Assembly (NCBI GenBank): GCA_973895155.1
Contig: OZ316894.1
Coordinates: 17,886,563 to 17,950,562, forward strand
Reading direction: 5' to 3'
Source: Marsupella aquatica
Taxonomy: Eukaryota; Plantae; Marchantiophyta
DNA: 64,000 bases
Made by a program: the position numbers and the translations under genes. The first letter of the stretch is position 1. Every line of letters begins with the position of its first letter. This document shows, one piece after another, positions 421 through 49,435 of the stretch. Under the pieces are notes generated by a model. The model was not told the origin of the DNA, searched no databases, and worked only from the letters and a program-made list of their open reading frames with translations.

Positions 421-2108
421 TTTGGTATGGGATTAGTTGATGTCTCAATGGTTTATCGTGACTGACTGACAATTTTTTGGGATGAAATTTAGAAATCTGA
501 ATGTTCTCATACAAAGCGATGGTCGGATTAGCAATTATATGGAGTACACAATTGCACGTTTAATTGAGAGAATGATTAATTATGATCGAGCAATTTTAAT
601 TTTCAGTTTAGACAATTTTTGAGATCCCAACTTAATTTCTAAAGAGAACATGGCATATGTGATGTTATTTTGATTTGTTTTGAGATGTTAATAACCATTG
701 TGTAAGAAACCGTCAACTCCATACAAGACAACAATGTAGAACATGAGAGCACTCAATCTCACACTACACCAACAAGACACCATGATGCATGGAGAATGAT
801 CCAAAGCTCATGAGAAAGTATATGTGAAGAATGAGGGAAAGAATGCATTCCCTTAAACCTATACCCCCCAAGGGGAATTGAAATGTGTGGGCCTAAATAA
901 GTGGATCTTATCCTAAACTAACCAAGGGTCAACTAACCCTAGTAAGGCCAAACTAACTAAAGCTTGGAACTCAAGTCAATTCCTAACCCATTGAAGATAA
1001 CTTGATCGGGGTCCCGATCGGGGTGATACACCTATGAAGCATGATTGTGGAAAAAGTGGTAAATTGAGCTGCAGTCCACGAGAGTGCAATCCACGGGACT
1101 TGATCAAAAATAGTGAATGTCACACCATTTAGAGTGGTAGTAAAGTATATCGTACTATCTAGGTATAGAGGTTTTGTATGTATGCTACATGAGCACTATG
1201 TTTAGTTTGAGTTGGTGTGAGGGATAGTTATCCCCTTGTGTTGGCTCAAAGGCCTCATCTTTCAATGTTGAGCCTTTGAGCATGAGCTTGGTGGCTATGG
1301 TGTGGCTGACCAGGTTGTGTGCATGTAACGTGGATTCCTTGAAGCACAAGGTGCGTTGGGCTTGACATACATGTGTGATCGCGTCGGATGGAATCGTTGT
1401 TGGATTAGCACCGATCGTTGTTCGATTTGCACTATTGAAGAAGATTATATTGAAAGATGACCTTCAAATTTTGATGTACGGATTGTGCAAAAGAAGTTCG
1501 ATTTCGTTGTGGTTTTGTTGTTGACGATTCGTGGTATCTCGGATCGGGTTTTGTTGTTGAACGGATTGCTGGTATCTCGATCTGTTACAAGTTGGTGTTG
1601 AGAAAGCTCGAGTGAATGCGGAGCTTTGAGTTGTTGAGTTGCGCATTTGGAGTTGCGGTTTGCATCGGTCGACACTGCAGCATTTTGGAGGGCTGAGTGT
1701 GCAGTCGATGATCGGAAGTTGCCGTCGACTATTGTGCGCAGATTACTGAGAGTATTTGCTGCGGTTTTGTGAAGGCAAGTCGGTCAGACTTGTGATTGTT
1801 TGTGATTCTGGTTGGGGATGGTTCCAATCGGGAATTGATAGTTGAAGTTGTATCTTGCGGATTTGAGATTCGTCAAGCTTGATGCCGACGGATAGTGCAT
1901 TTCTTTGAAGAAAGCGACATTTGATGTTGGCAAATTGCATTGCCTACGGCAACGTAGCGCACTGCGGAGAGGCGACGTAGCGCATCACGGAGAGGCGAGG
2001 TGCAGCGGCGACCTAGGGCACAAGGAAAACGACAAAGTTAGTGAACAGTGACTTTGTCCGGGAATTGCGGTGGGGTTTTTGCAGCAACAAGGTTGTGAAG
2101 GTCTTTCA

Positions 2109-2471
2109 CGGAACACTGTTCTGTTGAGAGGGCATATTGGAGATTCGTCATGGTAGTTTTGGGAAGATTGGTCTTCCACAGAACACTGTTCCGTCGTGGG
2201 TGCACATTGAATATTGGTCTACCCCAGCACACGTCTTGTCTGCGTTGTGAAGAAGGGTTGGTTGCGGAACACTGTCCCGCAACTAGGCAACTCACGGAAC
2301 ACTATTCCGCCAATCAGCTTGGCTATTGGTGATGGAAGGTTGCGGAACACTATCCCGCAACTAAGTAATTTACGGAACACCGTTCCGCCAATTGTCTTGG
2401 AGATTGGTGGTGGTGCATCATGGAACACCGTTCCGCGATTGAGTGATTGGTATCCGCGGAACACTGTTCCG
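2109..2471. repeat. Array of 8 palindromic 15-bp motifs (consensus CGGAACAC-TGTTCCG) in the retroelement leader
   Basis: Copies start at 2109, 2179, 2265, 2295, 2343, 2373, 2421 and 2457. CGGAACA and TGTTCCG are reverse complements. Confidence 0.9.
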
Positions 2472-5208
2472 CCAATCGGTTGATTATTGATAGTGGTGAG
2501 TTGATGGTGACCATTTAGGGAAAATTGGTCATCACGGAGTTCTCTGGTGATACGGGGCTACCCGAGGGACGATGGTCTGGTTTTACTCGGAGTGGAGTGC
2601 AATTTCGGCCGACAACATTGTTAGTGGCTACAAGTGGGGTTTCAGATAGTGATTTTGACGAGGAGTTAGTAGCCAGTTCTCCTCGACATCAAGTGACTGT
2701 TCCATTGTTGTGGGATATGGAAGAGATGTATGGGGCACGAAAGGACCGAGGAGATACTCTGGTGCAGTTGGCACGATTGATTTGGATGATTTCATCCAAG
2801 AGTTTGATACGTGGTGTGATATGCAGACAATGCGTAATGTCACATTGTTCACACCTTTCATGGCTTGGAAAGGGTTGTTTCAGCATTTGGAGGGGCCATC
2901 CATGGATGACTACCATGAGTTTCGAAAGGCTCATTTAGTGGATATTGAGGCATGGAGACAGCATTGGTCACCAAACTATGTGTCCATCACTTATGGCACA
3001 AGTGCGGTTTCCCAACCCATTGCTATAGCTGCGGCTTCTTCTAGCAGCACTAGCCAGAGTGGCACTCAATCAACATCCACCGCTACTCCTACCGGTGTGA
3101 TTGTGGCTGGGAGTGGAGCTGCGCCAATATTTAACCCTGTGATGAAGTTCTTTGAAGTATTGAAGCAGAACTACCAGGGTGTGAGAACCGATAAGTTGAA
3201 GGGTCTTCAGGAGTTCCAGCGCAAGACTAGAGAGAGCCTACGTGAGGCATACACTCATATGCGAAGATTGATTACGGTCACACAAGGAGTGACAGAGGCC
3301 CAAGCGGTCCAATTCTGGTATGCAATTCTGGATAGGGAGTTGCGTCGTAGAGTGAGAGATGCCACTCTATTGAGGGATTCAGATCCCACATTGGCTATAG
3401 TTTTTGCACTTGCTGAGCGCATTGAGCTCAATATGGTGAATGAGAAGGTGGTGACTTCCGGATTTGCCAAGGAAGCACCAAAGGTTGCATCGACGCCCAC
3501 ACCGCAACCTTCTGCACGTAAGAGCCAGAGAGAGAAGCCTACAACACGGGAATCTACTAGTCAGAGACCTGTGCCTTCTTATGCTGGACAACAATCAGGA
3601 TGTTGGACTTGTGGTGGGGATCATGCACAAAGATATTGCCCGGATAATAGGGGGCAAGGAGGGGCATCTACACCTGATCAACGACAATGTGATCATTGTG
3701 AAGTTTCTGGACACACCAAAGATAGGTGTTTTGTACTTCATCCTGAACTACGACGGGGAGGACCACGTGCGTATGATCAGGGAAGAGGAGGTAGAGGTGG
3801 TGGACGTGGTCGAGGCATGCCACATGCAGGAAGACAAGGAGGTGATGTTGCTCCTACCGTTACCACAGATCCTAAGGATGCAAAGATTGCTCAATTGGAG
3901 CAACAACTAGCTGCAATGGCTAGTTCTCAAGTTAGACCTAGTGCTAGTGATGGAGCTTCTACATCCTACGGAGCTTCAACCTCTTATGGAGCTGATGGAG
4001 ATCTTGCCACCATGGGATTTATGTGTGGCACTGCGCATGTTGATGCATCAACAACTTTGACTCGAGGAGCAGCAAAAGCCCTTGAGCCACGAGGAGCAGT
4101 GGTAGAATTGGATCCGCAAAGAGGGGATATTCGTCGTCAAACAAAGCTTCCCCAATCGTTTACATTGTTAGAGGCAGTTCAAACTACCTCTATGAACCCG
4201 ATTCGGACTAACCTAGGTGGGGGTAAGTTGGCGGAATCAAGTGATGTTGTGACAGGGATGACAAGTACCTTGTTGGGGGCGACCACTACTATAGTGCGCA
4301 CGCCATTATTTTCAGCTACGGATATGTTGACATTGGGAGTTAGTCTAGCAGAGGTGTTCAGATTGGCGGCCACATTATGCGAGGACACTCCAGCTGTTGC
4401 TTCACGTGCAGAAGCAATGCCCTATTCTGAAGTAGTGGAGTTGCATCCACCTATTGCCAGTAATGAAACATGGCATGCAGCAGCGGCAAGGTTGATAGAT
4501 TTACCAACGCGCCCTGCTTATGAGAGGACTAGGTTTAAACCTAGCGTCATATCATTGGATAATTGGAGTGGTATCTTCCGATTAGTTGGGCCTTCTGGAG
4601 CAATATACCAGCCAGAGCGAGTGTTACTGGATACTGGTGCTCAGCCCTTGATGTTGGGTAAGTCTGCGATAAGAGGATTGGGATTGCGTCCTGATGACTT
4701 GGAGGAGTGTCCCTTTCCCATTCAAACTTCATTGGGAGGACCTACACCCACACAACATATCACTCGACGAGCACTTGAACTTAGGATTCAAGAGGATCAT
4801 TCAAAGGATAATTCACAGATCCAGGCTCGAGCTATTCTGACTAAGGCTGAGTCATATGATGTCTTGGTGGGATGTACAGTTCTCTATCCTATGGGATTTG
4901 TTCTTGATTTTTGGAATGAATCGGTGTCGTATCGACCCGATTGGCAATCTGGAGATGCTCGATTGAGCCAATTGCCAGTGCAATTTAGTGGACCTGTTGG
5001 CGGCCCCAAATCTACACCATTATCTTTGGCAGCATTTAGTAGTTTGATTATTGGGGCTGATGATTTGATTGAGGGTAACGCACATGCAGCAGATGTTCCT
5101 ATGGTGGAGGAGACACATGAGGAACACGGGATGCATGGATTGCCCATTGATAGTGTTGTGACACCAGTATGGGGTACTGGACAGGCCTTGCCATAAAGTG
5201 CGGCCCGG

Positions 5209-6474
5209 TTGATACATGATGCATGGCGTCATGCTTTTACACCGCAATCAGGAGTAGAGCAGTCAATTGCAAATGGACCAGTGACTCTTTCCCCATTGGA
5301 CACTACTCCTATTGCATGGCAATATCCACATGAGGGTATTTGTTTGTTGGATTTATTTGGGGGAATTAGCACTGGATTGGCTAACGTTCTTCAAGCCGGC
5401 ATTCCGGTGCGTCGTTATTTGTATGTGGAGACTGATGAGACAGCACGTAGAGTCTCATTACATCATGTGGCATTGTTGGTCGAACGCTACCCACAATTGT
5501 TGCCAGTGGATGCCGTTCGTGGTTATCAGCATGCATTACCAGCTGACATTTCATTGTTGGGGGCGGATCATCTGGATCGCGTTGGCCCCATTGATTTGGT
5601 GATTGCAGGTTGGCCATGTCAGGGTCAATCTAGAGCTGGAGTTGGACATGGACTTCATGATCCAAGATCTGCATTGTTTTGGGAGATGTTACGGGTGTTG
5701 CGTCATCTTCAGTTGCATCAGACACATTCTCCTGCCTATATTTTGGAGAATGTGCCATTATTGGGTGATGATCGTCATCGACTTGTTGCCAGCATTCATC
5801 AAGTTAAGTCTTGGATTGGACCTGCTGTGTTATTGGATGCTGCACGTGTGGGTTCTCGTGCACATCGTCCACACTTGTGGTGGACTAATTTGTTACCTTG
5901 TGAGGTGTTGAAGTGAGCATTTGATAGCATTCCTCGCTCAGCAACCTTGGTGGTGGATGATATTTTGGATCCAGGGCATTGTGCACAAGGTGTGACCCAA
6001 CCTGACAGACCTCCATTGGCAGTGGTCAATGTAGTTGGTCGCCCACGTTGTGCATTACCCACTTTTGTGAGCCATTCTGCTTCATATGCATTCAGAGCAG
6101 GTGGGCTTGGACTTGTATGGGATACATCTCTACAGCAGTTAGTGGAACCTACTGCTGATGAAAGAGAGAGTGCTATGGGATTTTTGACAGGCACTACTGC
6201 AGTTGCTTCTGTGTCAGAGAGTTCACGCCGCCAGGTCCTTGGTCAAGCCATGGATTTGAATTGCTTGACTTGGATTATCAGCTTGGGATTAGCTGAACAA
6301 TTGTGGATGCGCTCTTTTGATGTTACTGATCGTCCATTGGTGAGCTTGTGGTCTACTGAGACAGTAGCGACCACAGCTGGGGGCGAGCACACAGTCCATG
6401 GACCTATGGCAGGATTGGCCAAGGCAGGACAGATTGTTGAGCAGGTTGGGACTGCTCAAATTGTTGCTAAATAG
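5209..6474 (+). pseudogene. DNMT3-like C5-cytosine DNA methyltransferase domain within the retroelement polyprotein
   Basis: Motifs in canonical order: I LLDLFGGISTG; II YVETDETA; IV DLVIAGWPCQGQS (catalytic PC); V DPRSALFWE; VI ILENVP; VIII DAARVGSRAHRPHLWWTN; IX EPTADERESAMGF; X RRQVLGQAMD. One internal TGA at 5914. Confidence 0.92.
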
Positions 6475-9453
6475 CAACCACCGACTATCTCTTCAACCCC
6501 AAAGGAAGACATCACAGCTTTGATGGAGAGTTGGGAGCCACAAATTGGCCCTAAGTTGACAGGGGGTGAGAGACGTCGAATGTATCAATTCTTGAAGAGT
6601 TACTGGAATTGTTTTGCATTTAGCGATTTGGGAACATTGAAGGGCCCTGGTATTCAGATTGAATTGGCTAGTGATGCGCCAATCTTTCGACGACCATATC
6701 GATATAGTGATATGGAGAGGGCATTGATCCAAAGTAGAACTCAAGATTTGTTGGAAGCTGGTTTGGTGGAGATTTCATACGGAGAGTATGCATCTGCCAC
6801 AGTGATGCCAGCCAAGAAGGATGTGCATGGCAATTACATGGATAGGCGAATGTGCGGTGATTACCGGCCTATTAATCGTCAAACAAAATCTGATCGATAT
6901 GCCATGCCCACACCAGAGGAGATCTTTGATGCAGTGGGGCATGCAAGGATTTTTAGTTCGTTGGACCTCAGAGCGGGGTACCATCAGTTGCCAATTAGGC
7001 ATTCTGACAAGTCCAAGACAACATTTTGGGGGATTGATTCTTATGGCAAAGATCATTTGTATCAGTGGTTGTTCTTACCATTTGGGTTGAAGAATACACC
7101 AGCTGAGTTCCAGAGAGTCATGGATCGAATCCTTGCAGGTTTGGATTTTGTCAGATGTTATATTGATGATATTTTGGTTTATTCTTCTACTGTGGAAGAA
7201 TATCAGAGACACTTGCAGATTGTGTTTGAGAGATTGAGGGAACATGGATTGAAGCTCCATCCCGGCAAGTGTAAGTTCTTTCAAGAGAAGATTGAGTATT
7301 TGGGCCACACTATCTACCCAGGAGGATTGGGTGTGCAACAGACTAAGGTGGAGGTCATTACACAGATTCCTCATCCTACTGATGTGAGCAGAGTTTGTGC
7401 ATTCTTGGGATTGGCGAGCTACTATAGGAGGTATGTTAAAGGATTTAGCCAGCTTGCTAAACCTTTAACTATACTCACTAAGTTGGATTAGGAGTGGATT
7501 TGGGGAGACGACCAGGAGCATGCTTTCCAAGAGTTGAAGGAAAGACTGGCGTCAACACCTATTTTGAGAAGACCCATTTCAGGGCGACCATTTCAGCTTC
7601 ACACTGATTGGAGTGGAGTAGGGCTTGGAGCAGTGTTGACTCAGAAGGATGATGAGGGGAATGAGTTTGTTGTGGCGTATGCTAGTAGATCCAACAATTC
7701 AGCAGAGGCTAAGTATAGCTCTTATGAGGGAGAATGTTTGGCAGCAGTGTGGGCTGTGGCACATTTCCGTTGCTATTTGTTTGGTAATTTGTTCATCTTG
7801 ATCACTGATCATCAACCTCTCAAGTGGTTAATGGAGTCTGACAAGCTTAGAGGGAAGCTTGCACGATGGGCATTGTTGTTGCAGGAGTATGATTTTCAGG
7901 TTGTGCATAGACCTAGAAAATTGAATTTGGATGCGGATGGGTTGAGCCGCAATCCATGTACCAGTCAAGAGGATGAGACTGGAGCCCGATGGCATGATGA
8001 GACGGATAAGGAGATGGTGCCAGGATGACATGCGTCTGCTTTCCTTTGTTGGGTGCCAGTATGTAGTGGATATGTAGACTCTACTTCATTGGATAGAGTA
8101 GATGATGAGTCTTCCGATATGGATGTTGGTGATGTAGTTTTTGGACAACAAGATATTCACAACGATGTGAGAGTGTTGGAATATTTGCGTGTTGGCTCCA
8201 TTGGTGGCAATGTTGATGCTAAGGAGCGTGATAGGGTTCTACAACGAGCCAAGAGATTTCAATGGGAAGGAAACCATCTTTTAAGGGTACTACGTGATGG
8301 GAAGGTGTTGGTTGTACCAAAACCATCACAACGAGTACATTTGGTGCGACATGCGCACGAAGAGTTAGGGCACTTTGGTGTGAAGCGCACTTATAGCTTG
8401 CTGCAGACACAGTATTGGTGGCGTGGTATGCACACTAATGTCCAACAATTGATAGCTAAGTGTGTGGTTTGTGATCGAGTGCGAGCATCGTTCAATGCTC
8501 CCACTCCCCAGTTGCATCCGCTACCGATCATGGGTTTGGGATATCGATGGAGTTTGGACTTTGCTGGTCCATTGCCTCTTACCCAACGTCACAATCGGTA
8601 TGTTTTGGTTATGGTGGAGCACTTCTCCAAGTGGATTGAACTAGTGGCATTGCCAGATAAAGCTAGTGGAGGAGTGGCTACCACATTTTTGGATCGAGTA
8701 CTCAGTCACTTTGGAGCACCAGCTGAGGTGTTGACTAATCAGGGCACAGAATTCCGTGGAGATTTTGAGGGTTTGTGTGAGCAAGATCTGATTGATCATC
8801 GTACTACTTCTCGCGATCATCCTGAGGCAGATGGATTGGCAGAGAGAGTTGTACAAACTATGAAGAGAGGATTGCGTAAGTACGGCTTGCAGGTTGGTCA
8901 TTTGGGAGACTGGGATCTCCAACTACCTTGGTTAGCTATGGGCTACCATTTTAGTCGACAAGTATCACTTGCATCCTTCTCACCTTATTTCTTGCTCTAT
9001 GGTAGAGAGCCAGATTTGCCAGTGGCTATTCGTTGTGATGTTGCAACTGTTGTGAATTTGGATGATCCAGATGTTTGGGTCAAGGTTTGTTCAGAGAGGG
9101 CACAAGTTTTTGAGAGAGTTATGCCCATGGCCTTTGACAACCTTGCTATTGCCCAACATCGTGATACTTTGCGGTATGCTACTATTCGTGGAGGAGGTTA
9201 TTGCACGAGGATTAGAAGATTTCATCTTGGAGATTATGTGTATTTGCAGCAGACAGCACCAACGATGCTTGATGTGACCGCAGGGTGGACAATCTTACGT
9301 GTGCATGAAGTGTTGCCTTCTGGAGTCCTTATATTGGAAGGACGTGATGGTATGGTTTGGAAGGATCATATGCGTAATTGTGCGCCATGTCATCTTCCAA
9401 ACATTGATGGTACTATGGATCCAAGCTTGGCACATGTTCGTGCTGGCTTGAAG

Positions 9454-9591
9454 TGTATGTTGTGTGGATCTGCTCAGGGAGCAGCTACTATGTTGATTTG
9501 TGATCGGTGTTCTAGAGGATGGCACATGTCGTGTTTGACACCACCCTTGCACATGATTCCTAGTGGATCATGGTTGTGTCCTCAATGTCGG
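9454..9591 (+). other. PHD finger (C4HC3) at the integrase C-terminus
   Basis: CMLC-x10-CDRC-x4-HMSC-x11-GSWLCPQC, including the typical LTPPL and W-x-C-P-x-C signature. Confidence 0.9.
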
Positions 9592-9990
9592 TGATGCCGA
9601 CTAGTTATCATTCGTGTTCTCATGGAAGATATACATTGCAGGTAGGTGATCGATGGGGCTCACTTGCACCCGGCCTCCTGATCTTCACACCTAAAAAGGT
9701 GTATATCAACCTTGTAGAACTCATGGCTAGCTAGAGTTAGGGGACCTCACTTCCAGCTAGGGGGGCGATTGTGGGTTTTGGGCATGTATGGACATGGGTT
9801 CCATTTGTAGATCATTCTCTGAGGTTTGTGTCGTTAGATTGTGACTATGCTTGGATATGTGACAAACGATGTATGTTGTGTAGCGATGTGTATGCGCACG
9901 ACATGAAGGGGAGACAGTCACTTGGATTTATTCAAGTGCACATGAGTGTTGTTTGTACACAAAGAGAATGAATGATGAAACTTTTGGTTT

Positions 9991-11385
9991 TATTTACGGA
10001 CCCCACTAGAGGTCCCTTCCAAAATTCCTGGCACCAGAGCGTGCCACGTCGACAACAACCGCAACAAACAAGACTTGTTAGTTTTGTGAATCAAACTTGG
10101 GTTTTGCTTCATGTTTGCGTCAATTTGGGTGTAAATTTTGGGACGCCATGCCGTAAAAAGAAATGTAAAATTTTAGAAATGCAAAGAGCGAGACGGGTAA
10201 AAGTGTCACTATGTAACCGTTTTAGTTACGTATCCAATTTTAGAAATTAAATTCAAAGATTTGAAATGTATTTTTCATATAATAAACAATGACTAATAAC
10301 TAACTTGATAACTTCCTTGTTAACAGGTAACTAGCACATGGAGTAAGATTTCCAGCCTTTTGCAATTCATGCAAAATGCCATGGTTGAAATTTGAACTCA
10401 ATGAATTGATACAATTCATTTGATCAGACATTGATCTGGTTTCAATTGGACTTGCCATGAATTGACTATTGACTCTCTTGAGAATTTGGTTGCATGTAGC
10501 CAAAAGGGCTGATTTTGACAATTGTTTGTGATAAATCACGTTGTCGACTTAAGCCTACAAAGCAAAGTATTCATGTGGCACTTGTGGCAGTTGAAAAAAA
10601 TATCAAACTGCTCAAGCCATACTTGAATGGGTCCACAATGATTTTGTGAGAAAATCTATCCTACTTGTTCAACACAACATGACTACCAGCTTCCCTTCCT
10701 TATGAGACTTCTTTCTTCTCAAAACTAGTTTTGCCCTTCTCCATTTGGTGAATAGCTGCATCAAGATCATGAGGCTATTAACCTCTAATTCAAAACTAGC
10801 CAAAGTCAGGCTTTAGTGATGAAATCTCCAGAATTTCCAATTTTTTGAAAGTACATTGACAAATCTTTTACAAATTAACAGGGCTCAACAACTAGAAAGC
10901 TTAGGGTTAGTTGTTGAGAAGAGCAGTCTTCTCAATTGATCTTGAGAAAGTAATTTTCTCAACTCAAAGTGCCTTCTAAACTCAAGGCACTTTAGTGGTC
11001 GAATATAGTGCCATCCAATGCCCAAATCAACTAACTAAAAAAACTGTGCCTTGGGTTTATTAATGTTCTAAAATTAGCTAAAATATCTTAAGTGTTTTAA
11101 CGCCTGCTAGCAGAGCATTATGAACCATATTAGCCTCTCAAAACTCAAGCTAAAAGCCCTCATTTTACTGGTCATTATGAAGACTATTGCAAAATCACAT
11201 TTGGATGAGGTAATTTATCCTATATTTTTACTAAAATTTGTAAAACTATCTCAGCATAATAGCATGTGTTACCAGATCATTTTGGACCATAATAAACTCA
11301 CACAACTTGAGCTAAAACTAGTATAACATACATTATTTTTACTCAAACAAGGCCTAAAAAATGTAGCTAGAGGATCCACGAACTA
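9991..11385. mobile_element. Non-autonomous TIR transposon, TAGTTACGGACCCC family, copy A
   Basis: Left end TATTTACGGACCCC and right end AGGATCCACGAACTA. The first ~330 bp are near-identical to 38508-38845. Confidence 0.65.
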
Positions 11386-15337: not shown

Positions 15338-17214
15338 ACCGTAGGGTGTGCGATATAGTGACAGGACGTGTACGAATCGCCCGTGAAGGCAGTTCATACC
15401 ATTAGCTCCAAAACTCTAACATCTCAGGAACGGCTCAATTTACGATTCAGGGACGGTTCAGTTCACGATTCTTCCAAGGCAAAGTCACCTGCGAAGGTTC
15501 TCTACCCTTTCTGGACGAGGTGTCGCACCTTGGAAAACTGTACTTGGATTTTCGAACATAAACTTGTGTAAAGTCTGACTTCAGTGGTGTCGCTGATCGT
15601 TCCTGCATACTTCGCCACTTTTTGTCTGTTTTAAGTTTTGAGTTGCGTGATTTTTACGGGACTAGTCTCCCATGTTCTTACTCTGTCGTGAGTGATCAAT
15701 CTTGAAGCATAAGTGGTACCAACTCTGATTTTGCGTAGAGATATCGGGCAAAGCTAATCTGAAGCTGTGATTGCCCTTCTACTGGGAAGCTCGAAGTAAG
15801 AAGCTCCAGTAGTGAAATGTCCTTTCGCTTAGGACTGGGTAAGGCATTTGCTGTAATTTGCGTCTATTTTGCGAAAATCCGCTATTCATGCAGCTCAGCC
15901 CAGGCAGCTGCTGCTTGAAGTCCTCAATGACATTCCCGACCAAATTTCGCTTGACATATCCTTTGAGATGGCCTGCGTTACAATACGCGTGGTTCTACAT
16001 AATCCCAAAATCTGCTATCAATGCGTGCAGCTCAGCCCTTATATTTTAATTAGTTTTTTCTATGCCGTTGAATTGATAGCTGCTTAAAAGTCCTAGTGAC
16101 ATCTCCCCACCTGCACATGCAGGAGATTACCTGGGTTACAAAAGGCGGGATTTGACGTGTACCGTATGGTCTTTGTATCGCAAGCGTCCCTGGTGGGAAA
16201 AGCTCTTACTATCATCAATACAATATTTCCATCGGGCTTTATAGCCTCAAAACTTTCCATCGGCTGGGAGAATTACAGATCTTCCATTCAGTTGAGCCGG
16301 TTCTCCAAAAGGCAGAATCCCGTCAGAATCTGATGAGCTTTTGTGTATCTTCATCGATCAGTCAACGCATGCTTGAATTCTCATCGTTAAATGGATGGTT
16401 GTACAACATTCAGCTGTACCCACCATGATTCCCTTGAAGGACAACGGTGCGATGGGATAATGACGGCTTCGATCACATGCCTGTAACAAAGCAAAGATGC
16501 ATCTGAACAGGCAAGAATCTAAAAGAGAAGTAGCCTGTCATTAAAAAGAAGAATCAAACTTCATCTACCGAGTAAAGTACACAGGAAAGTCTTGCTAACC
16601 GCGGGAAGTCTTCCGTTCCCCCGGGCTAACTTGGACAAAGACACATGAAATGCACCACTTTCAATCAGTTCTTTGAAGTTGGTGAAACTCAACATTGGAA
16701 CAACTGAAGTTGACTTGACATCCTGAAACTCGACACTTCTAGTGGAAATCGAGCTCTCGCAAATCATTTCGGGGGGGGGGAGGTTCTTAGGTGTTTGTCC
16801 CTGAACACCGCTTTACCGAGTTGAAGGAGCCCTTATATAGTTAAGGGCAGTGCTGATTGCATTGATCGAATAATAGAACCGGGCAACAACAACGTTTTGC
16901 AGGGCTTGAAAATATCTACAATTCATATTTCTCGGTTGGGGTTCAAACGATTTTGAGCCGAATTTTGGAGATTCCGGCGAAAATCGTAAGAAATGTGAAT
17001 TTCCGTGTGCAAGTGTATAAAATCTTGACGCATTAGCTTTTTAAGCTGCCAATCTAGTGCTCTTAATTCACGCCCATTGCAAATTCTATTTCTGCGTTGG
17101 ATCCAACGTCCAATCATCTTGCAGCAGTTGGCAGAGACTCACTCAGTTACCTTCCGAAGAAACTGTCTGTAGATGCGAATGTTTATCTACATGGCATCAC
17201 AGACTAGAACGCGT

Positions 17215-17765
17215 CCTTTGCGTGAACCAGGTGTTTCATCGAAATCGATTATTGAGCGGATGACATCACAGGTAAGAATGCCACCATTGTCTGAACCAAA
17301 TGCCTCGTCGAAATCGTCTAATCGAATTGGTTATTGAGTAGTGCAGCGTGTACGACAGGGAAAATGGCTGGCATGCATCCTTTGTCTGAACCAAGTGGCT
17401 CGTCGAAATCGTGTCCAATCGAAATAGACTTCAGCTCTTCAGCTTCTACAAAAGGCTGATGATGACACCACAGGCTAGAATGCATCGTCTGTCTGAACCA
17501 AGTGCCTCGTCGAAATCGTCCAATCGAAATCGGTTATTGAGTAGTTTCAGCGTCTTCAAATGGGGAAAATGACAACACAGTACAATTCATTCGTTATCTA
17601 GCTGAACCAGGTACCTCTTCGAAATCGTCCAATCAAAATCTGTTATTGAGCAGTTCAGCATCTACAGAAAGGCAAATGACGACAGACTAAGCGTATCCTT
17701 TGTCCGAACCAGGTGTCTTCGTTGACTTCGTCCAAACGAGATCGGTTGTTGAGCATTTCAGCGGC
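17215..17765. repeat. Six degenerate ~70-110-bp tandem units, possibly a decayed LRR-like coding region on the minus strand
   Basis: Recurring TGTCTGAACCAAGTGCCTCGTCGAAATCGTCCAATCGAAATCGGTTATTGAG. Minus-strand translation gives FPHLKTLKLLNNRF-like units, with stops and frameshifts. Confidence 0.6.
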
Positions 17766-19278: not shown

Positions 19279-21469
19279 CACATTTAATATGTATTCTAGT
19301 CTTACTCTTTAATTTTGTCCACTTAATATCACTACAAGACAAAAAGTAAAACATGTTCCAGGATGAGCATGCTATATGGCAAAAAGTTATGGACTATGAA
19401 TTTTTTGATCCTTAACTTCTTGTGTCTTTAGCCTGTAACTAGTGAGTTAAAGTCCATCAAGTTATCAGCTTTGAGAAACCCTAATACTAACATTGTGCCC
19501 ATAATTGATACTCAACATAAATGAGTGATGGCACATTGATACTCTTCGTCTTAGAGTTGGTAAGAAATGAACAAGAAAGAAGAGTAACAAATAGTCAATT
19601 GAACAGGGTCTCGTCGAAGCTGTGGATAATGTAAAATCCATGGCCTGTTGTTAGCAAAAAACCCCGGGCAAAAAAGTGCTGTTGCCAACTCGGGGTTCTG
19701 CATACTTTGAGTCTGTATCCCGCACCATGAAATCTCGTTCCAACTAAAAGTCCTCTCCATTAAAGTTTGAGATGCCCTAATGAAGGGGGGGCAACCAAAG
19801 TGCAGGAAAACCCTAGGGACCAGGCAAAAGCCCACAACAAATAGTCGGGAGTAGTTATATATCGTTTCAACGATTGTCCGGGTATTAGGGTTTTGTAGAT
19901 TAGGGTTTGGATATTAGGGTTATGGACAGGGAATAGCGTGGCCGACTGTTAACTTACTAATAAAAATGCAGGCTCGAAGTCATTGTTGAACGCAGCTCAA
20001 ACCCTTCACTCCAACCGAGCCCAGGAGCAGAGGCTACTGGGTGGTGGCAGACTTCTGAACTTTTTGTTTCGACGGAGCCTCTCTGATTGTTTCTTCAGTG
20101 TGGGATTTACTCTCCTTCTTCCGGTTTTGGTTTTGCTATCCGTATTGGTCCTTCTTTCGTTTTGGTTTCGACTGCATTTTTATTTTTTTTGGCGTAAGGT
20201 TTTTGATCCTTCTTCTTGTTTCTATACTTACCCAACCTTTTTTCATCTTTTTTCTTGTCTGTTGAATCACCCAATCGTCTCTGTACATGTCGTTGATAGT
20301 CTTTCTCTCGTGAATATAGTCATTTGACATTCGCGGACCATTGATGTATGGACTTCGGACGGAGCCTTGAATGATAAGGAATCATGATATCAAGGGCGTC
20401 AAGGTTTTGTCAATATGGTAGTGTGGCTAGTTGACAGCTGATGATTGTATTTCTAACGGAGCCTGTATTGTAGTCTGATTACGACTGCCAAGGTTGTAGT
20501 AGAGGGTTACTGGTTCAAGTTTGATTTGTCTTCACCGCTGGAAGGCATCGATGATTGGGGATCTTCTCTACAGTGAAAATCTGTGATCATTCGGATGCCA
20601 ATAACAACCGCTCCAGAAATTTCTGGAGCAGCGGCCAGACAACCGTAGGGCTATTTCCACAGAGCTTGAGTGCATTTGTCCTCCTGTTCTACTAAAGTCA
20701 CAGCCCAAATTTCCTTCTCTTGCGGATTAGATTATCTTCTCTCGCACCCGTTATGTTCTTGATGTATTTCATTCCCCTTAGCTTTTCAGCAAAGGATATC
20801 GTATGCGTATGCGACAAGTAGTGTGCCAGTCGATTTTTAATTATCCGTTGACGATGGCATTGTGATGAGACCGGTTTTCAAGAATCTTGACTCCCGTCCT
20901 TCGGCCCGCCGAGATACGCATTTCGTTGTGCATTTGGGGCAGTCGATCGCCTTGGCTGATCTTGTGGCGGGTCAGGGAACGGCGTGAGTCCCTGTCAAAC
21001 CCACTTTTGGTCCCTGCTACCTGATTGCTGTGTACCCACGTTTAACCGTGACAGTTGTGCTTGCTTGCTTGTTTGTTTACAGAGTTAAACGTGCAGTTTA
21101 GGGAGTTCATTAGCATATATGTATGCTGACTTCGCGGTGTTGGTTTTAGCGAGTGTGCTGAAGTCATGTAGTTCTACAAATCCTGTCTGGGCGATTGACC
21201 TCCCTTACGGTTCAGATGCAGAGGGATATGCTCACTTACAACATAATTATCTTTGAACGTTTCAGCGAAGACTGACCTGGAAGTGTACACAATCATCACG
21301 ACGAGCTCCGTTCTTCCATGGACTGTCTTCACATTAGCAACAGGGAGAACGCATCTTTTAATGGATGACAACAGCAGTGAGAAAAATAGATTCAATGAAT
21401 GATAATAGCAGTGTGAAAAATACCCCATAGGATTTATGCAGCTTTACATTAGATAGTGCAGAAACGCCC

Positions 21470-30188: not shown

Positions 30189-32063
30189 ATACTCAGGAAG
30201 GCAGAGTTCTTGAATCCTGGAGGATCGGGTGGCAGTGAGCATCATTGAGGAGGTCTGTCACTCAGAGTAACAACACCGGTGCAATCTTCGTCTGTGTTAG
30301 GCTCAAACGTGAAGAGATTGGTTTTTGTTGGCAAGAATATGTTTTCTCCTGAATTCGACAAGGGCCCGTCTTTCTCATTAGCAATTCAACTAAAACACGG
30401 CAGTGAATGCATATCATTGGCTAATCTTGAGATAACTTCTACTAAAATTTGGTTTGAGGAATTGTGTGTATTATAGAAACCGAAGTTCAATTGTAAGATT
30501 ATTTGAATGACTGGACAAGAACACTACTTTCAGGAGAGTTTCCAGCACTTGTTTTGGCATTGTTGCTTCGTTTCTCCTTACGGATGTCATTTTTGTATCA
30601 TTATATGTTATAACCTGACTATTGTCTTTCTTGCTGTGTCGAATCTTTTAATATGGATATGTTCCTACGTGATTGGTACTTTGGTTGAACTCCTTCAGGG
30701 TCAGCTATTACCCACTGTTGAGCGTGTAAGGTCAGTTTCAATCTCACACAAGGAACACTCTGTGAACATTGCAAGGCGGAGGGCAATGGAAGCTAACATG
30801 TCCACGAACCAGACCGGAAGTCAAATTTCAGAACTGGCTGCGTTATGTAAAAGCTGAAATGGCCGGTTGTAGCGGGATTGTAGATCAACGTGAGACAAGA
30901 AATCAAGGGAGGTGAACTATATACAGAAATGAAGGAGTAGAGAAGGACGCCAATCTAAACAACCAGGAAAATAATGAGGAAGGATTTTTCGCCGAGCAGT
31001 TTGAGAACCCAGCAAATTTTAGGGCTCATTATGAAGGCACAGGACCTGAGATATGGGCACAGACTGGTGGGGCTTTGCGTGCGTTCATGGCAGCTGCGAG
31101 TAGCGGGGGAGCAGTTGCAGGAATATCCTGCTTTCTCAAGGTGAGATTTGATTATCTATTCGGATCCCTTAACAAAGCTACTTGATGGGTGCCTGGTTTG
31201 TGGAGAGGTCCTAAAAAGGATTTAATAATTTATAGTCTTTATTGCTTGTTCCAAACGCCACTGTAGTAGATTTCAAAGCTTTGCAAATCACCTTGTGGTA
31301 TTTGACGAGGCTCAGAATGTTTCCTTGTCGTAGAAGGTCTTAAGTGCCTCCGATTGAACTGATGGGAAACTAGCCTAGCTGCAGGAACACAATTTTAATA
31401 TTAAGTGCCGCTTGAGTGACCCACCAGGGTCTGGTCTATTTAATCGGGTAACACTGGGTGTCATGTATACTCGCGAGGAAGCAGAGGGCAAGAGACTAAA
31501 AAAATCATTTTGACACTATCACAGAAGGTATTGGAATAAACCGTCTGACGCAAAATTTCAACCTTGCACAATTAGATGGAGCGTTTAGAGGCACAGATAG
31601 ATAAGCTGTGGAAATGTCAAGGTGCAACCCAGTTCTTAAAAACTCCCTCTCCATGGAGTCCGCGCTTGTGTATGGTAATAAGTGTCACTACACAACAACT
31701 CTGGTCAGTAACATTGGTCACGTTGTTATCGAATGCAGACATGAGTTCGTATAGAAGTAGGGGTCAGCCTGAGCGCATTAGTATTACTCAACTTCTGCTT
31801 AGATTACTTTTAAGCAGCGCTAAATGAGAACTGCTTGCGATGCAGGTTTTTGCTGAAAATTTGACGGATTGTTTATTGGCAGTTCCTCTGCGATGAATTG
31901 AGTTGGGGATGTTCGTCTGGCACGCTTGCTTCGCCCTGGCCACACCTTAGTAACAATACTGTGTGACAGTGGGTCTCGCCACCTTAGCAAATTCCAGAAT
32001 CCAGAGTATTCAGCTGCACATGGATTGACACCCTCTGCCAGTGAGCTGATTGTCGAAGGCTAA
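30189..32063 (+). pseudogene. Cysteine synthase-like (PLP-dependent, CysK2/cysteine synthase 2-type) pseudogene
   Basis: Exon remnants ILRKAEFLNPGG/DRVAVSIIEE; TVERVRSVSISHKEHSVNIARRRA; GFFAEQFENPANFRAHYEGTGPEIWAQTGG; DPPGSGLFNRVTLGVMYTREEAEGKRL; TEGIGINRLTQNF; GHTLVTILCDSGSRHLSKF. Multiple deletions, frameshifts and stops. Confidence 0.88.
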
Positions 32064-35754: not shown

Positions 35755-36895
35755 AGCCATAGTGGTGCACGGATTTGTAAAGGTCAATGTACTTCTTGAC
35801 AAGTTAAGGCATTCTGGTGCACACATCCGCAAGGCCGGTGTACTCTTTTACCCCAATTGTAACTTAAAATTGATAAGGTTACAAGTTAAGGCATTATGAT
35901 GCACACATCCGCAAGGGTCAGTGTATTGTTTGATCCCAATTGTAACTTTAAAATTGACAAGGTTACTAGTTAAGGCATTGTGGTGAACACATACGCAAGG
36001 GTCAGTGTACTGTTTGACCTCAATTGTAACTTTAAAATTGATAAGATTGCAAAGCAGAACATTCTAGTGAATACATCGCAAAGGTTGGCATCGTGTTTAA
36101 CCCAAATTGTAACTTTAAAATTGATAAGTTGGTACAAGTGAAGGCATTCAGGTGCATACCTTGGCAAGGGACATTGGTGTATTGTTTGCCCCCAATTATA
36201 ACTTTAATATTGATAAGGTTAGAAGTTAAGGCATTGTGATGCACACACCCGCAAGGGTCAGCGTACCCCAATTGTAACTTTAAAATTGACAAGGTTACAA
36301 GTTAAGGCATTCTAGTGCACACATTTGCAAAGGTCGGTTATTGTTTGACTTGAATTGTAACTTTAAAATGGAGAAGGTTGCAAGTTAGGACATTCTAGTG
36401 AACACATTGCTAAGGTTGGCGTAGTGTTTAACCCCAATTGTAGCTTTAAAATTGATAAGGTTAACACAAGTTAAGCCATTCTGGTGCACACATTGGCAAG
36501 GGACATCGGTGTACTGTTTGACCATAGTTATAACTTTAATATTGATAAGGTTAGAAGTTAAGGCATTCTGATGCACATCCGCAAGGGTCAGTATATTGTT
36601 TGATCCCAATTGTAACTTTAAAATTGACAAGGTTACAAGTTAAGGCATTCTGGTGCACACATATGCAACGTTCGTTGTGTAGTTTGACCTCAATTATAAC
36701 TTTAAAGTTGATAAAGTTAGCACAAAACACATCGGCAAGGGACATCAATGTACTGTTTGCTCGACTATTTGACCCCAATTATAGCTTTAATATTGATAAG
36801 GTTACAAGTTAAGGCATTCTTATGCACACATCCGCAAAGGTCGGTGTATTGTTTGACCCCAATTGTAACTTGAAAATTGACAAGGTTGCAAATTA
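35755..36895. repeat. Minisatellite, ~84-bp unit, ~13-14 degenerate copies
   Basis: Unit ACAAGTTAAGGCATTCTGGTGCACACATCCGCAAGGGTCAGTGTATTGTTTGACCCCAATTGTAACTTTAAAATTGATAAGGTT. Confidence 0.92.
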
Positions 36896-36998
36896 AAACT
36901 ATGAATGTGGTTGGCTTAGGGTTGACTTAATTCAAATAAAGTTGAGGTATACCTTTATTAGCGCTTCACTGATTTGCCCCACATTACTGGCCCATATT

Positions 36999-37455
36999 TA
37001 ATTACAGACCCCCATGGGAAGTTACTTCCAAATCCCTGGAAGCACTTGCAGCCACTATGGATATTAAAGGAACACCAATTAAGAAACCCTTTGGAAAAAG
37101 GAACACCAAGGGAACATAAGAAAACCTTTGACTCCTATGGATAAAGGAATACCAATTAAGAAACCCTTTGGAAAAGGAACACCAATGGAACATAAGAAAC
37201 ATTTTGACCACTATGGATAAAGGAATCCCAAAGGAATGTAATGAAGAAACACATTGGCTTCTATAGCATTTTGCATGGGCTCTATGGACATAGGAGTACC
37301 AAGGAAACGTTGTGCATACACTTCTTCCATGAATAACCTACTCATTTTTCTTCTCATCTCTATATTCAAATCTAATCCAATATACAACTCTTCATGTGTT
37401 CTAACTGAGTTATCGAATACCATCAAACTTACATAACCAAGGGGTCCTTGAACTA
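36999..37455. mobile_element. TAGTTACGGACCCC-family TIR element, copy B
   Basis: ATT|TAATTACAGACCCC ... GGGGTCCTTGAACTA|ATT, with internal CTATGGATAAAGGAATACCAA subrepeats. An inverted relative lies at 48753-49435. Confidence 0.7.
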
Positions 37456-38507
37456 ATTACTCTTTACTAGTTCTTGATCGAATGACGACTAGCATAGATT
37501 TGACATGTGTTATAATTCTTACACACATTACCATTCTCGCATGTGTTTCCTTTCTCACACGCATGACAATTCTTACACAAGTTTATTGTGCATCACTCCA
37601 CATGATCTTACAGTTCTCATCGTTGATCAATAAACATCATTCAATGACTAAGAATGACTTGTTGTCTTATTTTATTGTCCAAAGTACTATCCAAGCTTCT
37701 ATGTAATTTTGGCATCAAAGAATGTGTATCATTCCTGCAAATGAAGCAACACGCTTGCCACATGGGTGTCTTCAATCGTAGCACAAATGATAAGGCACAT
37801 TGCACAATCTCCACCACCGATAAGTAAAATCCAATGGATATGAATTGATTGATGACATAATTTTCTCCATATTCATAAATTTGCAAGAGTCTCTAACACG
37901 ACCAGTTGAGTGCAATCAAAGCCATTCTTCCAAAAACTTCCCGTGAACATGTTTACATGTATCTTATATTTTTCCTGGCAGTTTGCATAGATGCAAGTTA
38001 TGTTCACTAAAAATCAGATATACAAGTGCAAACCACACTAAAGTGTATATTTGCAATTCCCCACAAGTGCAAGAGAGATGAGTGACATCTTTATTAATGA
38101 GAACAGGCACTTTATTGCTTATTACCTTATATAGTAAACTAATCCATGAATTATGCTACCTAATCCTAGCCATCCTCCAGGTGGTATGTTACTATAAAAG
38201 GGCCAACAAAGTCTACTTTTAAGAGCCTAGGTCTAGAGTGAAGTCTCTAGACAGGAACTCTATGACCATCATGTGCGTGGAATGGTTATCATGTACATGG
38301 GAAAAACTAATGACTATGATGAATGTCAACTGATACATACAAAAATTTTATGATAATTTTTAAATATTTACATTAAAGAAAGGCGCACTCTGGCCCCCCC
38401 ACAATATATGTGCATACAAAGACTAAGGTGCATACAAAGAAGAGTGATATATTATGACTATTAAGCAAAATGATATATTATGACTAGTGATGGTTTTTTT
38501 TAATATT

Positions 38508-39343
38508 TAGTTACGGACCCCACTAGAGGTCCCTTCCAAAATTCCTGGCACCACAGCGTGCCACGTCAACAACAACCGCAACAAACAAGACTCGTCGGTT
38601 TTGTGAATTAAACGTATAGTTTTTATTCGTGTTTGTGTCAATTTGGGTGTAAATTTTGGGACGTCGTGCCATAAAAAGAAAAGTAAAAACATTGGAAATG
38701 CAAAGAGCAAGACAGTTAAAACTGTCACTATGTAACCGTTTTAGTTACATTTCCAATTTTAAAACTTAAATTCAAAGATTTATATAAAATATTTTTCATA
38801 TAATAAATAATGATTAATAACTAACTTGATAACTTCCTTGTTAAACCGCAACTCCCGGTATGTAAGGACCTCTTGTATTGTACGGCCATTAATACTGGGA
38901 AGAGCACATAGAAACCCATGATCGGGGAGGAGGAATGGCTGGAATCTTGAAAGTTCATTGAATTTTATACTCAAAACTATTTACTCATTCTCAAAACAAA
39001 AAATACCCAATCGTAGATCTCATTGAGATCTTTCTTTTGCACCCTAGATTGCCTTCTAACATGGATGAAAAGATTTTTAGAGGCGTTACAAAATGGATGG
39101 CAAAGATCGTAAAATCAATAAAATCGACGACTAGGAAGGCTTGATTTGTTTAATTTTTCATTTGAAAAATATTAACCCATTTGCAAAACGGACAGAACCC
39201 ATCCATAGATGTATTTGAGATGTTTCTTTTGAGCCATAGATTGGCCATTATGATGGACGGACGAGATTTCCGAAGATAAGAAATGGAGACGGTTCAGATC
39301 AACTCTTCCCCCTGATTTTATTAGCCAAGGGGTCCACGAACTA
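38508..39343. mobile_element. TAGTTACGGACCCC-family TIR element, copy C
   Basis: ATT|TAGTTACGGACCCC ... GGGGTCCACGAACTA|ATT. Shares ~330 bp with 9991-10323. Confidence 0.75.
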
Positions 39344-46764: not shown

Positions 46765-48752
46765 CCGTTCCAATCACCTGCAAAACAAATGCAGATGCAC
46801 TGACAATTTAGGGCAGTGCCAGATTCTTAGAGTGAAAGATGTACATCACCAGGAACGTCCATGAGGTGCGAGCTGCCTTGACGGAGGCTGTACTTAATTT
46901 CAACACACTGAGGATCTGCCGAAAGCCCCTTCGAAGCTGAGAACGTAGCTGGCGTTTTGTGACTCAGGTTGAAAAGTCGGGAACCTAAACCCTGACCGAG
47001 AGGTTTGAGCGGCAGTGAACTCAAGTAGTGAGTGCAGGTGGCCAGCAGAATAGAATCAAAGATAATAAATTTGCTTTCTGTCAATTAAGCAACGACGAGA
47101 CTAGCTGAAAATACACCGAAGGACCTCACGGCTTGTAGGAAGAACGTTAAATTTCGAATCTCCCAATGTTCGCCAGGAATAACAAAGCTGAAGAGCGCCG
47201 TCACAATCTTAATCGAACGCCTAAATTTGCCCCAACACACAAACTTCGGCCTGGTCTCAATGAAGTAAAACAATCCCAAGCAAAAACAAAGGAAGCGCTA
47301 CTTCGGCACTCTTTACATTCCGGGAATGGGAATGCAGGTGCGCTCGAAAAATAGACAGCCTGATCCAAACGGAGAAAACATTGACGCAGACCAGACATTC
47401 TACCTCCTCCGCCACAAAACATTCTACGAGTACAGTGTAAGCATTGTTGCAGACAAGTCGGGCCCAACTCCTCGACCTAAACTTCACGAAACGGAAGAAT
47501 TGTTCGAAGAAAAGTCAATAGCAACTCACTTGTTAAACATGCGACCGGGGCAGTTCAGATGGACTCTGCTGCTGCCGTTTTTTCGTACTGAGGGCTCCTT
47601 CCCTCGATCGGGGACGCACTATCCAAGCATTCCCCAAAACCAACTTCCTACCAGCACCACCACGCACGTGCGCTCGCCAATCCCGTGCTGCTGCGCGCTG
47701 AAGGCCACCAATTGGACTCAAGGAAAAAGAACTGCTGTATTCCGATAACGATCGTCAGCGAGAAGTCATTCTCTCCTCCCCCGACATTCTTTACAACCTT
47801 CGGGTTCTCATCTTCTTACAGCATTACTCCTCGAGCACGCCAAGCCATGCCAAGCCACGCCACGCTACGAAACGCAACGGGCATTGACGACGGCAGAGGC
47901 CTCAACTCGACTCAACTCAACACAAACTCTCAACTCTCAACTCACCGAACATCAATCTTTAGCGCGCCCTTCCACCTCTTTCAAACCCAAAAAAAACCTC
48001 GAGCTGCACATGACGCACACCTACAGTAGTAGTAGTAGTAGTACACGCACCTACTTCAACCGCTCGCTGCCTCGCTCGCTTCCCTTCCCTTCCCTTCCCA
48101 CTACTGCGAACCGCCAAACCTGGCGACAGATGAGAGAGCGCACATTAGGTGCAGAAGTTAGTGCAGAAAGAACGATTAGCTTTGGGCTTCGTCTGCCACG
48201 GACATGCTCGATTCCGCGGTTCCGCCCCCCTCCCCTCACGGGCGACCACGACAGATCACTGACTGCTGTAATGTGGCAGCCAGCAAGCAACAACTGAGAC
48301 TCGTCCGTAACAATAAATTAGTAATTGTTTATGCTTCTGGACTACGACTTTGGCCCATTTATAGTGACACTGTACTTTTCCCAGACTTTACTCTCGTCGC
48401 TTCCACTCTCTCGATCTTCTCGTGACGACCGACCTATCGTTAGCCCAATGCCCCAATCGTGTAGTGTATTATTTTTCTCCCTTTTTTAAGACCTCGTTAG
48501 AAGTTTGATCGGGTCACTAGCATATCATATCTTAATCGTAGTGCCCTGGTGATTTTTCTCTTTCTATCTCAGGGCAATTCTCGGAGCATATTGCCCATGG
48601 TAATTTTTCCCCTTTGCAGGGCATTCTCAGAGCACAACGCCCTTGTCATATAGCAGTGTCATACCATGGGTATTTGGGAAAGTAAGGATTTGTCAATATG
48701 GATCATTTCTTTAGTAAGATTCTACTCTACTTTTACTAAAGTTAGAAAAAAT

Positions 48753-49435
48753 TAGTTCAAGGACCCCTTGGTTATGTATGTTTGACATTATTTGGAACCA
48801 TCATGAAGAGTTGCCTATTGGAATAGGTCTCAAATGGAGATGAGTGGACAAAAAGAGAAGATTATTTGTGTTAATAGTCCATGCAAAATGTTCTTTAAGC
48901 ACTATTGTATGTGGGCATGCAGTCTATGTGATATTCCATAGAGTCCATGCAAATTATTAAAGTAGCTGAAACGTTTCTTATGCTCCCTTGGTATTGTTGT
49001 GTCCATAGTACCAGAAAGGTTTCTTATTGTCCCTTATATATTCCCTTGTCTGTAGTAGCCAAAGGGTTTCTCAGTGTTCCTTGGTATCCCTTTGTCCTTA
49101 GTAGCCAAAATGTTTCTTATGTTCTTTGGTATTCCTTTGTCCATAGTAGCCAAAGGGTTTCTCACCGTTCTTTGGTATTCTTTTGTCCATAATAGGCAAA
49201 GCATTTCTTATGTTGCCTTGCCTTGGCAAATATTACAGTAGGTGAAGAGTTTCTTTCTATCCATAGTTGTTAAAAAAATTGTCAATTAAATAGAATTTAG
49301 ATCGACAATTTACTGGAAAAACTGATTCATCAAACGTGGCTCATCCAACAATTATTTTCTTTCAACCCTCTCTTTATTTATTTGAAGTGTTACTTTTCTC
49401 TTTTCTATTGTTTTTATAGTTACGGGGTCTAACCA
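48753..49435. mobile_element. Inverted relative of the TAGTT..GGACCCC TIR family (copy D)
   Basis: TAGTTCAAGGACCCCTTGGTTATGT is the reverse complement of 37431-37455. It carries the same subrepeats in inverted orientation. Confidence 0.65.

Follow-up and report, generated by a model that had tools for sequence, protein, structure and literature searches.

What does a cytosine methyltransferase do inside a retrotransposon of a liverwort? The question is raised by a 64,000-nucleotide stretch of the Marsupella aquatica genome (contig OZ316894.1, positions 17,886,563 to 17,950,562; hereafter the window, numbered from its first base), in which a decayed Ty3/Gypsy copy spans 1118-9903, with a TGAA 4-bp target duplication at each side, and encodes a DNA methyltransferase (DNMT) between its protease (PR) and its reverse transcriptase (RT). 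An earlier sequence-only reading had confined this element to 2710..9594, which proves too narrow. The answer in which we have moderate confidence is that the copy is a broken member of a green-plant Ty3 family whose first open reading frame (ORF1) encodes Gag, PR and DNMT and ends at a stop codon read through at a low rate, and that the DNMT would be packaged at capsid level and methylate CG sites of the element's own complementary DNA (cDNA) before insertion. Release of the enzyme by the protease, its packaging and its action on cDNA are steps that we infer.

A methyltransferase domain maintained in a retrotransposon family

Between 2659 and 9594 on the forward strand, six stop-to-stop open reading frames (ORFs) all share one frame, and Pfam matches follow each other in the order PR, DNMT, RT, RNase H (RH), integrase (IN) and PHD finger. 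The protease falls below the cut-off (E 0.003), and the other matches include DNA_methylase PF00145 (E 2e-11, a search that the sequence-only reading had itself recommended), RVT_1 (1e-32), RT_RNaseH (4e-37), Integrase_H2C2, rve and PHD (2e-10); no chromodomain was found after the integrase, where Pfam places the PHD finger instead. The order PR, RT, RH and DDE integrase is that of Ty3/Gypsy elements, as are the TG...CA ends (TGTCA at 1118, CACGACA ending at 9903) and the polypurine tract. For Gag, the N-terminus of a Marchantia homolog resembles Retrotrans_gag/Ty3_capsid clusters at 0.92-0.94, which serves as a lead only. The features of the window copy are as follows.

1114..1117, +, left 4-bp target-site duplication TGAA, read from the sequence; same bases at 9904-9907
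1118..1448, +, terminal repeat part A (repeat A), starting TGTCA, in a position that agrees with repeat A of related loci; predicted to comprise promoter, R and U5
1255..1266, +, predicted 5′ end of the RNA serving as self-primer, a 12-nt exact complement of 1449-1460
1449..1460, +, primer-binding site that pairs with repeat A of the element itself and is not tRNA-like
2110..2469, +, short near-palindromic motif GGAACAC..TYC, present eight times within the 5′ leader
2717..6474, +, ORF1, Gag-PR-DNMT, interrupted by stops at 5194 and 5914 and by a frameshift near 2735-2740
2725..3729, +, Gag, carrying a pair of CCHC-like knuckles, from the sequence
4531..4968, +, aspartic protease, LLDTGA at 4624
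5311..6303, +, DNMT3-like C5 cytosine methyltransferase, non-permuted
6472..6480, +, conserved stop in the readthrough-type context TAG CAA CCA
6475..9594, +, ORF2, in frame with ORF1, with decay stops at 7489 and 8026
6676-7488, +, RT, within ORF2
7492-7953, +, RNase H, within ORF2
8296-9168, +, integrase, within ORF2
9442-9591, +, PHD finger, at the end of ORF2
9755..9768, +, polypurine tract, from the sequence; same tract ahead of B in related loci
9769..9903, +, terminal repeat part B (repeat B), ending CACGACA
9904..9907, +, right 4-bp target-site duplication TGAA, from the sequence

The window copy is dead. Four of its five internal stops (5194, 5914, 7489 and 8026) are read as decay; the likely start codon at 2717 lies in another frame, which implies the frameshift near 2735-2740, placed from the window ORFs and the N-termini of relatives; DNMT motif VIII has lost its second Arg, and the integrase triad its second acidic residue.

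The DNMT motifs nonetheless follow one another in linear order, as the sequence-only reading had held: I at 5341-5373, IV (GWPCQ) at 5608-5622, VI (ENV) at 5746-5754, VIII at 5860-5889, IX at about 6160-6183 and X at 6238-6258 (read directly, with X at stops). A profile built from 33 relatives ranks DNMT3A first (E 1e-20), ahead of DRM-type enzymes (6e-8 and 2e-4) and HaeIII (2e-6), and a structure model of P0101, an uninterrupted relative (predicted local distance difference test, pLDDT, 79.5), matches DNMT3A in Foldseek (E 4e-17). On these models the domain belongs to the DNMT3-like class, with DNMT3 as the closest solved structures. A permuted enzyme of the DRM type was rejected on the linear motif order and the profile ranking. 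Phage methylases also match, up to E 1e-15 at 24-31% identity, and the DNMT tree has two phage enzymes as outgroups and includes no host DNMT3, DRM or MET1 sequences; an origin from a host DNMT3 therefore rests on the profile and structure rankings together with an earlier study (PMC5890265). Several lineages (L053, L062, P0019, P0233 and P0322 among others) have GWECQ or GFECQ as motif IV instead of GWPCQ, with the Cys kept.

Is the domain a property of the family or an accident of this copy? Among the best 120 of 425 protein relatives, named species carrying the DNMT, at up to 71% identity over the full domain, include Marchantia polymorpha, M. paleacea, Riccia sorocarpa, Calypogeia fissa and three Sphagnum species. 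A metagenome scan, in which 66 loci (L-numbered) were kept from the best 80 of 340 relatives, yielded groups A (near the Sphagnum proteins), B and C, in which domain order is mostly identical. In four runs related to the window's organism, contigs cover the DNMT no less than RT and integrase. The ratio of nonsynonymous to synonymous change (dN/dS) for the DNMT has a median of 0.13 between the window and 40 group-A copies, at a synonymous divergence (dS) of about 1.9 that is near saturation; it is 0.14 between L043 and L044, where RT gives 0.09, and 0.13-0.22 between lineages. The DNMT is thus under purifying selection, as judged from these substitution ratios.

A single nested capture, or a passenger under no selection, is accordingly a very improbable reading of the DNMT. 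The window domain is indeed broken, by the stop at 5914 and the changed motif VIII, as a passenger might be; against this, the same position and order recur in related loci, the main groups of the RT and DNMT trees agree, dN/dS between lineages lies far below 1, and the four-run contigs cover the DNMT with RT and integrase. A nested insertion in particular was ruled out by recurrence across loci and by dN/dS. The proposal of a land-plant Ty3 family with a DNMT between PR and RT is thus borne out by the liverwort and Sphagnum relatives, the trees and the profile.

A conserved stop codon between methyltransferase and reverse transcriptase

The sequence-only reading had joined the six ORFs into one Gag-PR-DNMT-RT-RH-INT-PHD polyprotein; the order stands, but the single polyprotein does not. 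Among 45 sequences spanning the end of the DNMT and the start of RT, a stop codon followed by CAR occupies the homologous site in 28 of 31 group-A members, in both members of group B and in the window, and in none of 11 from group C. Of nine group-A pairs checked, three proved to be the same insertion, which leaves 25 of at most 28 distinct insertions. Group-A contexts are TAG CAA CCC (20), TAA CAA CCC (7) and TAG CAA CCT (1), whereas CAR follows only 19 of the 574 decay stops that lie within domains; on this contrast, the view that all internal stops are decay was rejected. P0100, 88% identical, reads through the positions of 5194 and 5914 and terminates exactly at 6472. Relatives' ORF1 proteins measure 1278-1451 residues and end 97-162 residues beyond motif X; at least five come from Marchantia (1278-1281 residues), and the three of these that were checked share the same end point, the Marchantia stop being deduced from the protein ends. 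Position 6472 is therefore a conserved ORF1 end, and the element consists of two in-frame ORFs.

UAG-CAR-YYA is the plant readthrough signal of the tobacco mosaic virus (TMV) type (PMC2754532, PMC2194720), and retroelements use such leaky sites to set a Gag:Pol ratio of roughly 20:1 (PMC2194720). The perfect signal occurs in L043 and L044 (CAG TTA), in L069 (CAA TCA) and in the window (CAA CCA). In L043, ORFs of 1369 and 1047 codons are parted by a single stop (TAG CAG TTA), and the first Met downstream is codon +116, inside RT; ORF2 of L069 has no Met in its first 20 codons. No conserved stem was seen downstream of the stop among the sequences compared. From these comparisons we conclude with good confidence that RT-IN would be made by readthrough of the conserved stop.

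The alternative of separate ORF2 synthesis, whether through reinitiation at a nearby AUG, splicing or an internal promoter, with the DNMT still co-expressed with Gag, is unlikely, though it has some appeal: in-frame ATG codons lie close behind the stop (group A +2, L044 +4, window +16), the group-A context is CAA CCC, and in the fungal element Tca2 an in-frame gag stop need not mean simple readthrough (PMC2194720). It accords poorly with L043, which has no Met before RT, with the Met-free start of ORF2 in L069, and with the retention of frame and of stop plus CAR across lineages near synonymous saturation. By either route, a single ORF comprises Gag, PR and DNMT, and RT-IN is a product under separate control. 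Because the DNMT shares ORF1 with Gag, ahead of the stop, it is likely made in capsid-level amounts. In several group-C copies (L062 8415-9514, L064, L065), gag lies in another frame than PR-DNMT-RT; a frameshift site may here place the DNMT on the Pol side, in copies too decayed for the site to be located.

Distribution and phylogeny in green plants

A DNMT-bearing Gypsy element is already known: KnitGypsy-Dnmt3 of Klebsormidium nitens (de Mendoza et al. 2018, PMC5890265) shares the Gypsy domains, a non-permuted Dnmt3-like domain, DIRS-like split repeats and purifying selection. The sequence-only reading thus overrated novelty, since a PR-DNMT-RT Gypsy with split repeats had been published from the same RT clade. 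KFL_009030040 (P0296), with the order PR-DNMT-RT-RH-IN, falls in this clade and is taken to belong to the KnitGypsy-Dnmt3 family.

In a quick LG+G4 tree of RT, with 57 rows chosen from 147 and no named Tcn1, Phygy or Selgy references, all DNMT-bearing rows fall in one 46-row clade (approximate likelihood ratio support, SH-aLRT, 100) that includes Klebsormidium, Closterium, Coleochaete and chlorophyte sequences; many of these rows are ORF2-only, so that their DNMT status is not given by the sequence. The window groups with Calypogeia, Marchantia and group A (support 99). The DNMT tree, with long-branch warnings on four rows, recovers the main groups of the RT tree. Within the clade the DNMT occupies three positions: before RT in one ORF (Klebsormidium P0296, Closterium and group C), after RNase H (chlorophyte-like rows), and before the conserved stop (window, groups A and B). 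One RT clade with three DNMT positions suggests an old acquisition in green plants followed by relocation, and not an acquisition confined to Klebsormidium. In PMC5890265, by comparison, it is treated as specific to the K. nitens lineage. KnitGypsy-Dnmt3 differs further in having its DNMT in the Pol ORF with RT, an arrangement found here in group C only, whereas in the window and groups A and B the DNMT closes ORF1 ahead of the stop (PMC5890265); and unlike KnitGypsy-Dnmt3, the present family has land plants among its hosts.

Several side observations concern these relatives. The DNMT lies after RNase H and before the integrase in P0021-P0031, P0299, P0322, P0323 and P0334, among them a Cymbomonas protein with DNMT-IN, an arrangement absent from the excerpts of the literature examined. 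P0224, the ORF2-like product of a Coleochaete scutata transcript, shares 70% identity over RT-RH and falls within the RT subclade of the window. L069, P0133, P0341 and P0431 are labelled as proteins of cyanobacterial metagenome-assembled genomes and likely represent mis-binned plant or algal DNA. No relatives were found among viral contigs. P0327 and P0335 are Ty3-type polyproteins annotated with PF05869, which we take to be a Dam-type adenine methylase family; they fall outside the DNMT clade in the RT tree and are possibly Gypsy elements with an adenine methyltransferase.

Probable self-priming, split repeats and a putative route of integration

The sequence that follows repeat A pairs with a stretch inside A over 10-17 nt in all seven elements tested (0/200 shuffles each). 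In the window the duplex is 12 nt and exact, and none of 200 shuffles gave one as long. The pairing partner lies 137-170 bases into A in six elements and is best at 255 in L004; in group C, a TATA-like box stands about 30 bases upstream of it. The 5′ end of the predicted window RNA folds onto the primer site, with 10 bases paired in the minimum-energy fold (z -2.2). The element thus likely primes reverse transcription with its own RNA, as judged from this complementarity. Such self-priming is known for Tf1/Sushi and predicted for Tcn1, whose primer sites are likewise complementary to their own repeat and not to a tRNA (PMC6317226); those elements are chromoviruses with ordinary long terminal repeats (LTRs), whereas the present one has a PHD finger, a DNMT and split repeats.

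The layout A-coding-B-A-B is complete in L004, L009, L057 and L062. Among 18 loci with a visible B, nine (eight distinct) run on into A and nine end after B like the window, while B ahead of the first A was seen in none of 20 loci (17 distinct; three with under 200 bases upstream). Of 11 elements with both ends, the 4-bp duplication is perfect in eight, has one mismatch in two and is absent in one. The ends do not carry two full direct LTRs, and the 64-kb window holds no terminal repeat pair. The window copy is without the last A-B; contigs nonetheless join 1446 to 9768 and 9903 to 1120. The circular assembly of L069, one contig from a cyanobacterial bin, is maybe a repeat collapse and is not counted as a real circle.

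With B placed after the polypurine tract and A ahead of the primer site, B+A corresponds to an ordinary LTR. Internally, B and A meet at the junction GACA-NN-TGTC, which is palindromic if NN is GC. The arrangement of the repeats suggests that integrated copies are two-LTR circles, circularly permuted by opening at this junction, where cleavage after CA on each strand would leave ends ready for the integrase. Foamy virus integrase cleaves a palindromic circle junction (PMC1180852); that two-LTR junction is likewise CA-ending on both strands and a possible integrase substrate, but the present junction is internal to the terminal repeat, includes a spacer of 2 nt and sets the ends of every copy seen. 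The A2|B2 junction sequences are too uniform to show fresh formation in each cycle. SymbioDIRS-Dnmt3 and the Dam-bearing DIRS elements also combine a methyltransferase with the layout A-coding-B-A-B (PMC5890265); they use a tyrosine recombinase, whereas the present element has a DDE integrase (rve) and 4-bp duplications. Membership in DIRS/Ngaro was ruled out by the rve integrase, the lack of a recombinase match and the target duplications.

The CG-bearing end CACGACA invites another role for the enzyme. It could act as a restriction-modification methylase that methylates this CG, decides which junction can be cut and shields chromosomal junctions. The CG end is kept in all four lineages while coding CG is depleted, chromosomal copies hold an intact palindromic junction, only one of two permutations is seen, and split repeats are common to methyltransferase-bearing DIRS and Gypsy elements (PMC5890265). 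Integrase recognition alone, however, would conserve the end sequence, and several old copies show CG decay at CACGACA; we regard this role as doubtful. A wider proposal, that an ancient green-plant Ty3 lineage integrates from circles opened at the palindromic junction, that its bryophyte branch puts a DNMT in every capsid precursor, and that methylation of the junction CG steers the integrase by restriction-modification logic, is likewise speculative.

Possible roles of the methyltransferase

CG dinucleotides at codon junctions reach 0.32-0.54 of the synonymous-shuffle expectation, compared with 0.89-1.21 for CC and about 1 for CT, and the depletion is seen also in the uninterrupted L043. This is compatible with methylation, self and host methylation not being separable by dinucleotide bias. 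The 5′ leader (1461-2716) keeps its CG, with an observed/expected ratio of 1.06 against 0.49 in the coding part. In the leader, the GGAACAC..TYC motif has 10 matches (8 sites) where 2.0 are expected (0/100 shuffles); the repeats, possibly protein-binding or packaging sites, were not found in the group-A leaders examined.

The cycle that we propose would run as follows. RNA would start within repeat A and prime itself. Most ribosomes would terminate after the DNMT, and a minority would read through to RT, RNase H, integrase and PHD finger. The protease would liberate the DNMT within the particle, where the reverse transcription product would carry a B+A terminal repeat. The DNA would circularise and integrase would cleave the internal GACA-NN-TGTC junction, a two-repeat circle inserting as A-coding-B-A-B and a one-repeat circle as A-coding-B, the window form, which would be a dead end since it has no 3′ copy of A. 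The incoming copy, already methylated, might be hidden from the host or limited in its own activity. The recoding site after the DNMT in one branch implies selection for much enzyme, which argues for a role in the particle.

Several points weigh against this proposal. On expression, group A departs from the full CAR-YYA with its CAA CCC, and in-frame ATGs two codons past the stop in group A and 16 in the window would permit reinitiation there. Group C is without the stop, and Klebsormidium, Closterium and P0237 have DNMT and RT in one ORF, so that capsid-level DNMT is not required clade-wide. On enzyme function, dN/dS among decayed copies is 0.30-0.56 (integrase 0.42-0.56) and lineage dS is near saturation; host MET1 explains the CG depletion equally well; and in yeast the KnitGypsy-Dnmt3 domain produced no methylation, an outcome that its authors call inconclusive (PMC5890265). 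The DNMTs of SymbioDIRS, for their part, methylate CG de novo in yeast (PMC5890265). On integration, random cutting of two-repeat circles predicts A-B-A-coding-B too, a form seen in 0/20 loci and unexplained by the circle model, and A-coding-B could come from recombination between B copies after insertion.

A different target has also to be weighed. The ORF1 product may act mainly on host chromatin, methylating insertion sites or other loci or competing with host DNMT3/DRM, guided by the PHD finger. Expression at Gag level goes beyond the apparent need of one cDNA, a PHD finger closes ORF2, and the Marchantia ORF1 proteins mentioned above (at least five) are annotated as genes. The PHD finger, however, is on the side of the integrase and not of the DNMT, and the Klebsormidium methylome is ordinary despite such elements (PMC5890265); we consider this explanation improbable, and continue to prefer methylation of cDNA within the particle.

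The role of retrotransposon-borne DNMTs has been open since 2018, partly as Symbiodinium and Klebsormidium are difficult organisms to handle. In the genetic model Marchantia polymorpha, the ORF1 proteins are annotated as hypothetical genes, which makes the role testable and means that bryophyte DNMT gene counts need care. Split repeats together with target duplications suggest a route of integration that has been little studied, and LTR finders would likely miss elements with such repeats.

Comparison with other retroelements

The TMV leaky stop and those of SIRE1, Tca2 and murine leukaemia virus (MuLV) likewise place an in-frame stop followed by CAR-YY ahead of a downstream polymerase (PMC2754532, PMC2194720); stops of the SIRE1/Tca2/MuLV type lie directly after gag or before env, whereas the present one follows PR and DNMT. 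Gypsy-7a_cRei of Chlamydomonas (PMC9940879) is likewise a green-lineage Gypsy with a PHD finger, but no methyltransferase is listed in the excerpted description, LTRs are at both ends, and the PHD finger lies between RNase H and integrase. Streptophyte DNMT Gypsy elements are mentioned without detail, following PMC5890265, in PMC12344493, and the excerpted texts of PMC6453930, PMC5784723, PMC11982613 and PMC2864245 do not mention bryophyte ones. The excerpted description of KnitGypsy-Dnmt3 does not give the target duplication, junction, priming mode or recoding site (PMC5890265). In the open literature (Repbase, subscription papers and theses being outside its scope), no land-plant DNMT Gypsy, recoding site of this kind or such integration model was found; on these subjects and on split-repeat Gypsy elements, relevance was confined to PMC5890265 and the papers that cite it. 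The present additions are a DNMT encoded on the capsid side of a conserved stop, ends that are permuted and carry target duplications, probable self-priming and occurrence in Marchantia.

Surroundings of the element

A host-gene scan gave Pfam matches in two of the 145 window ORFs, and no tRNA genes were found in the 64-kb window. An intron-rich VEFS-box Polycomb gene lies at about 40400-42110 on the reverse strand, and a PALP-family exon at 30916-31182 on the forward strand; the window thus holds plant genes rich in introns. snoR143 (20543-20712, forward strand) is the only small nucleolar RNA found in the window. Positions 1-420 are repetitive and end in TGGTATCAAAGC (409-420), which we take to resemble a tRNA-Met primer site of another LTR element just upstream. 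A dispersed repeat, starting 85 bases past the element, occurs at 9989-10323 and 38506-38844 (89% identical), with a weaker part near 49599. Inverted repeat arms at 37085-37458 and 48750-49214, about 11.3-12 kb apart, flank the Polycomb gene, and tandem arrays occupy 35820-36967 and 17190-17758.

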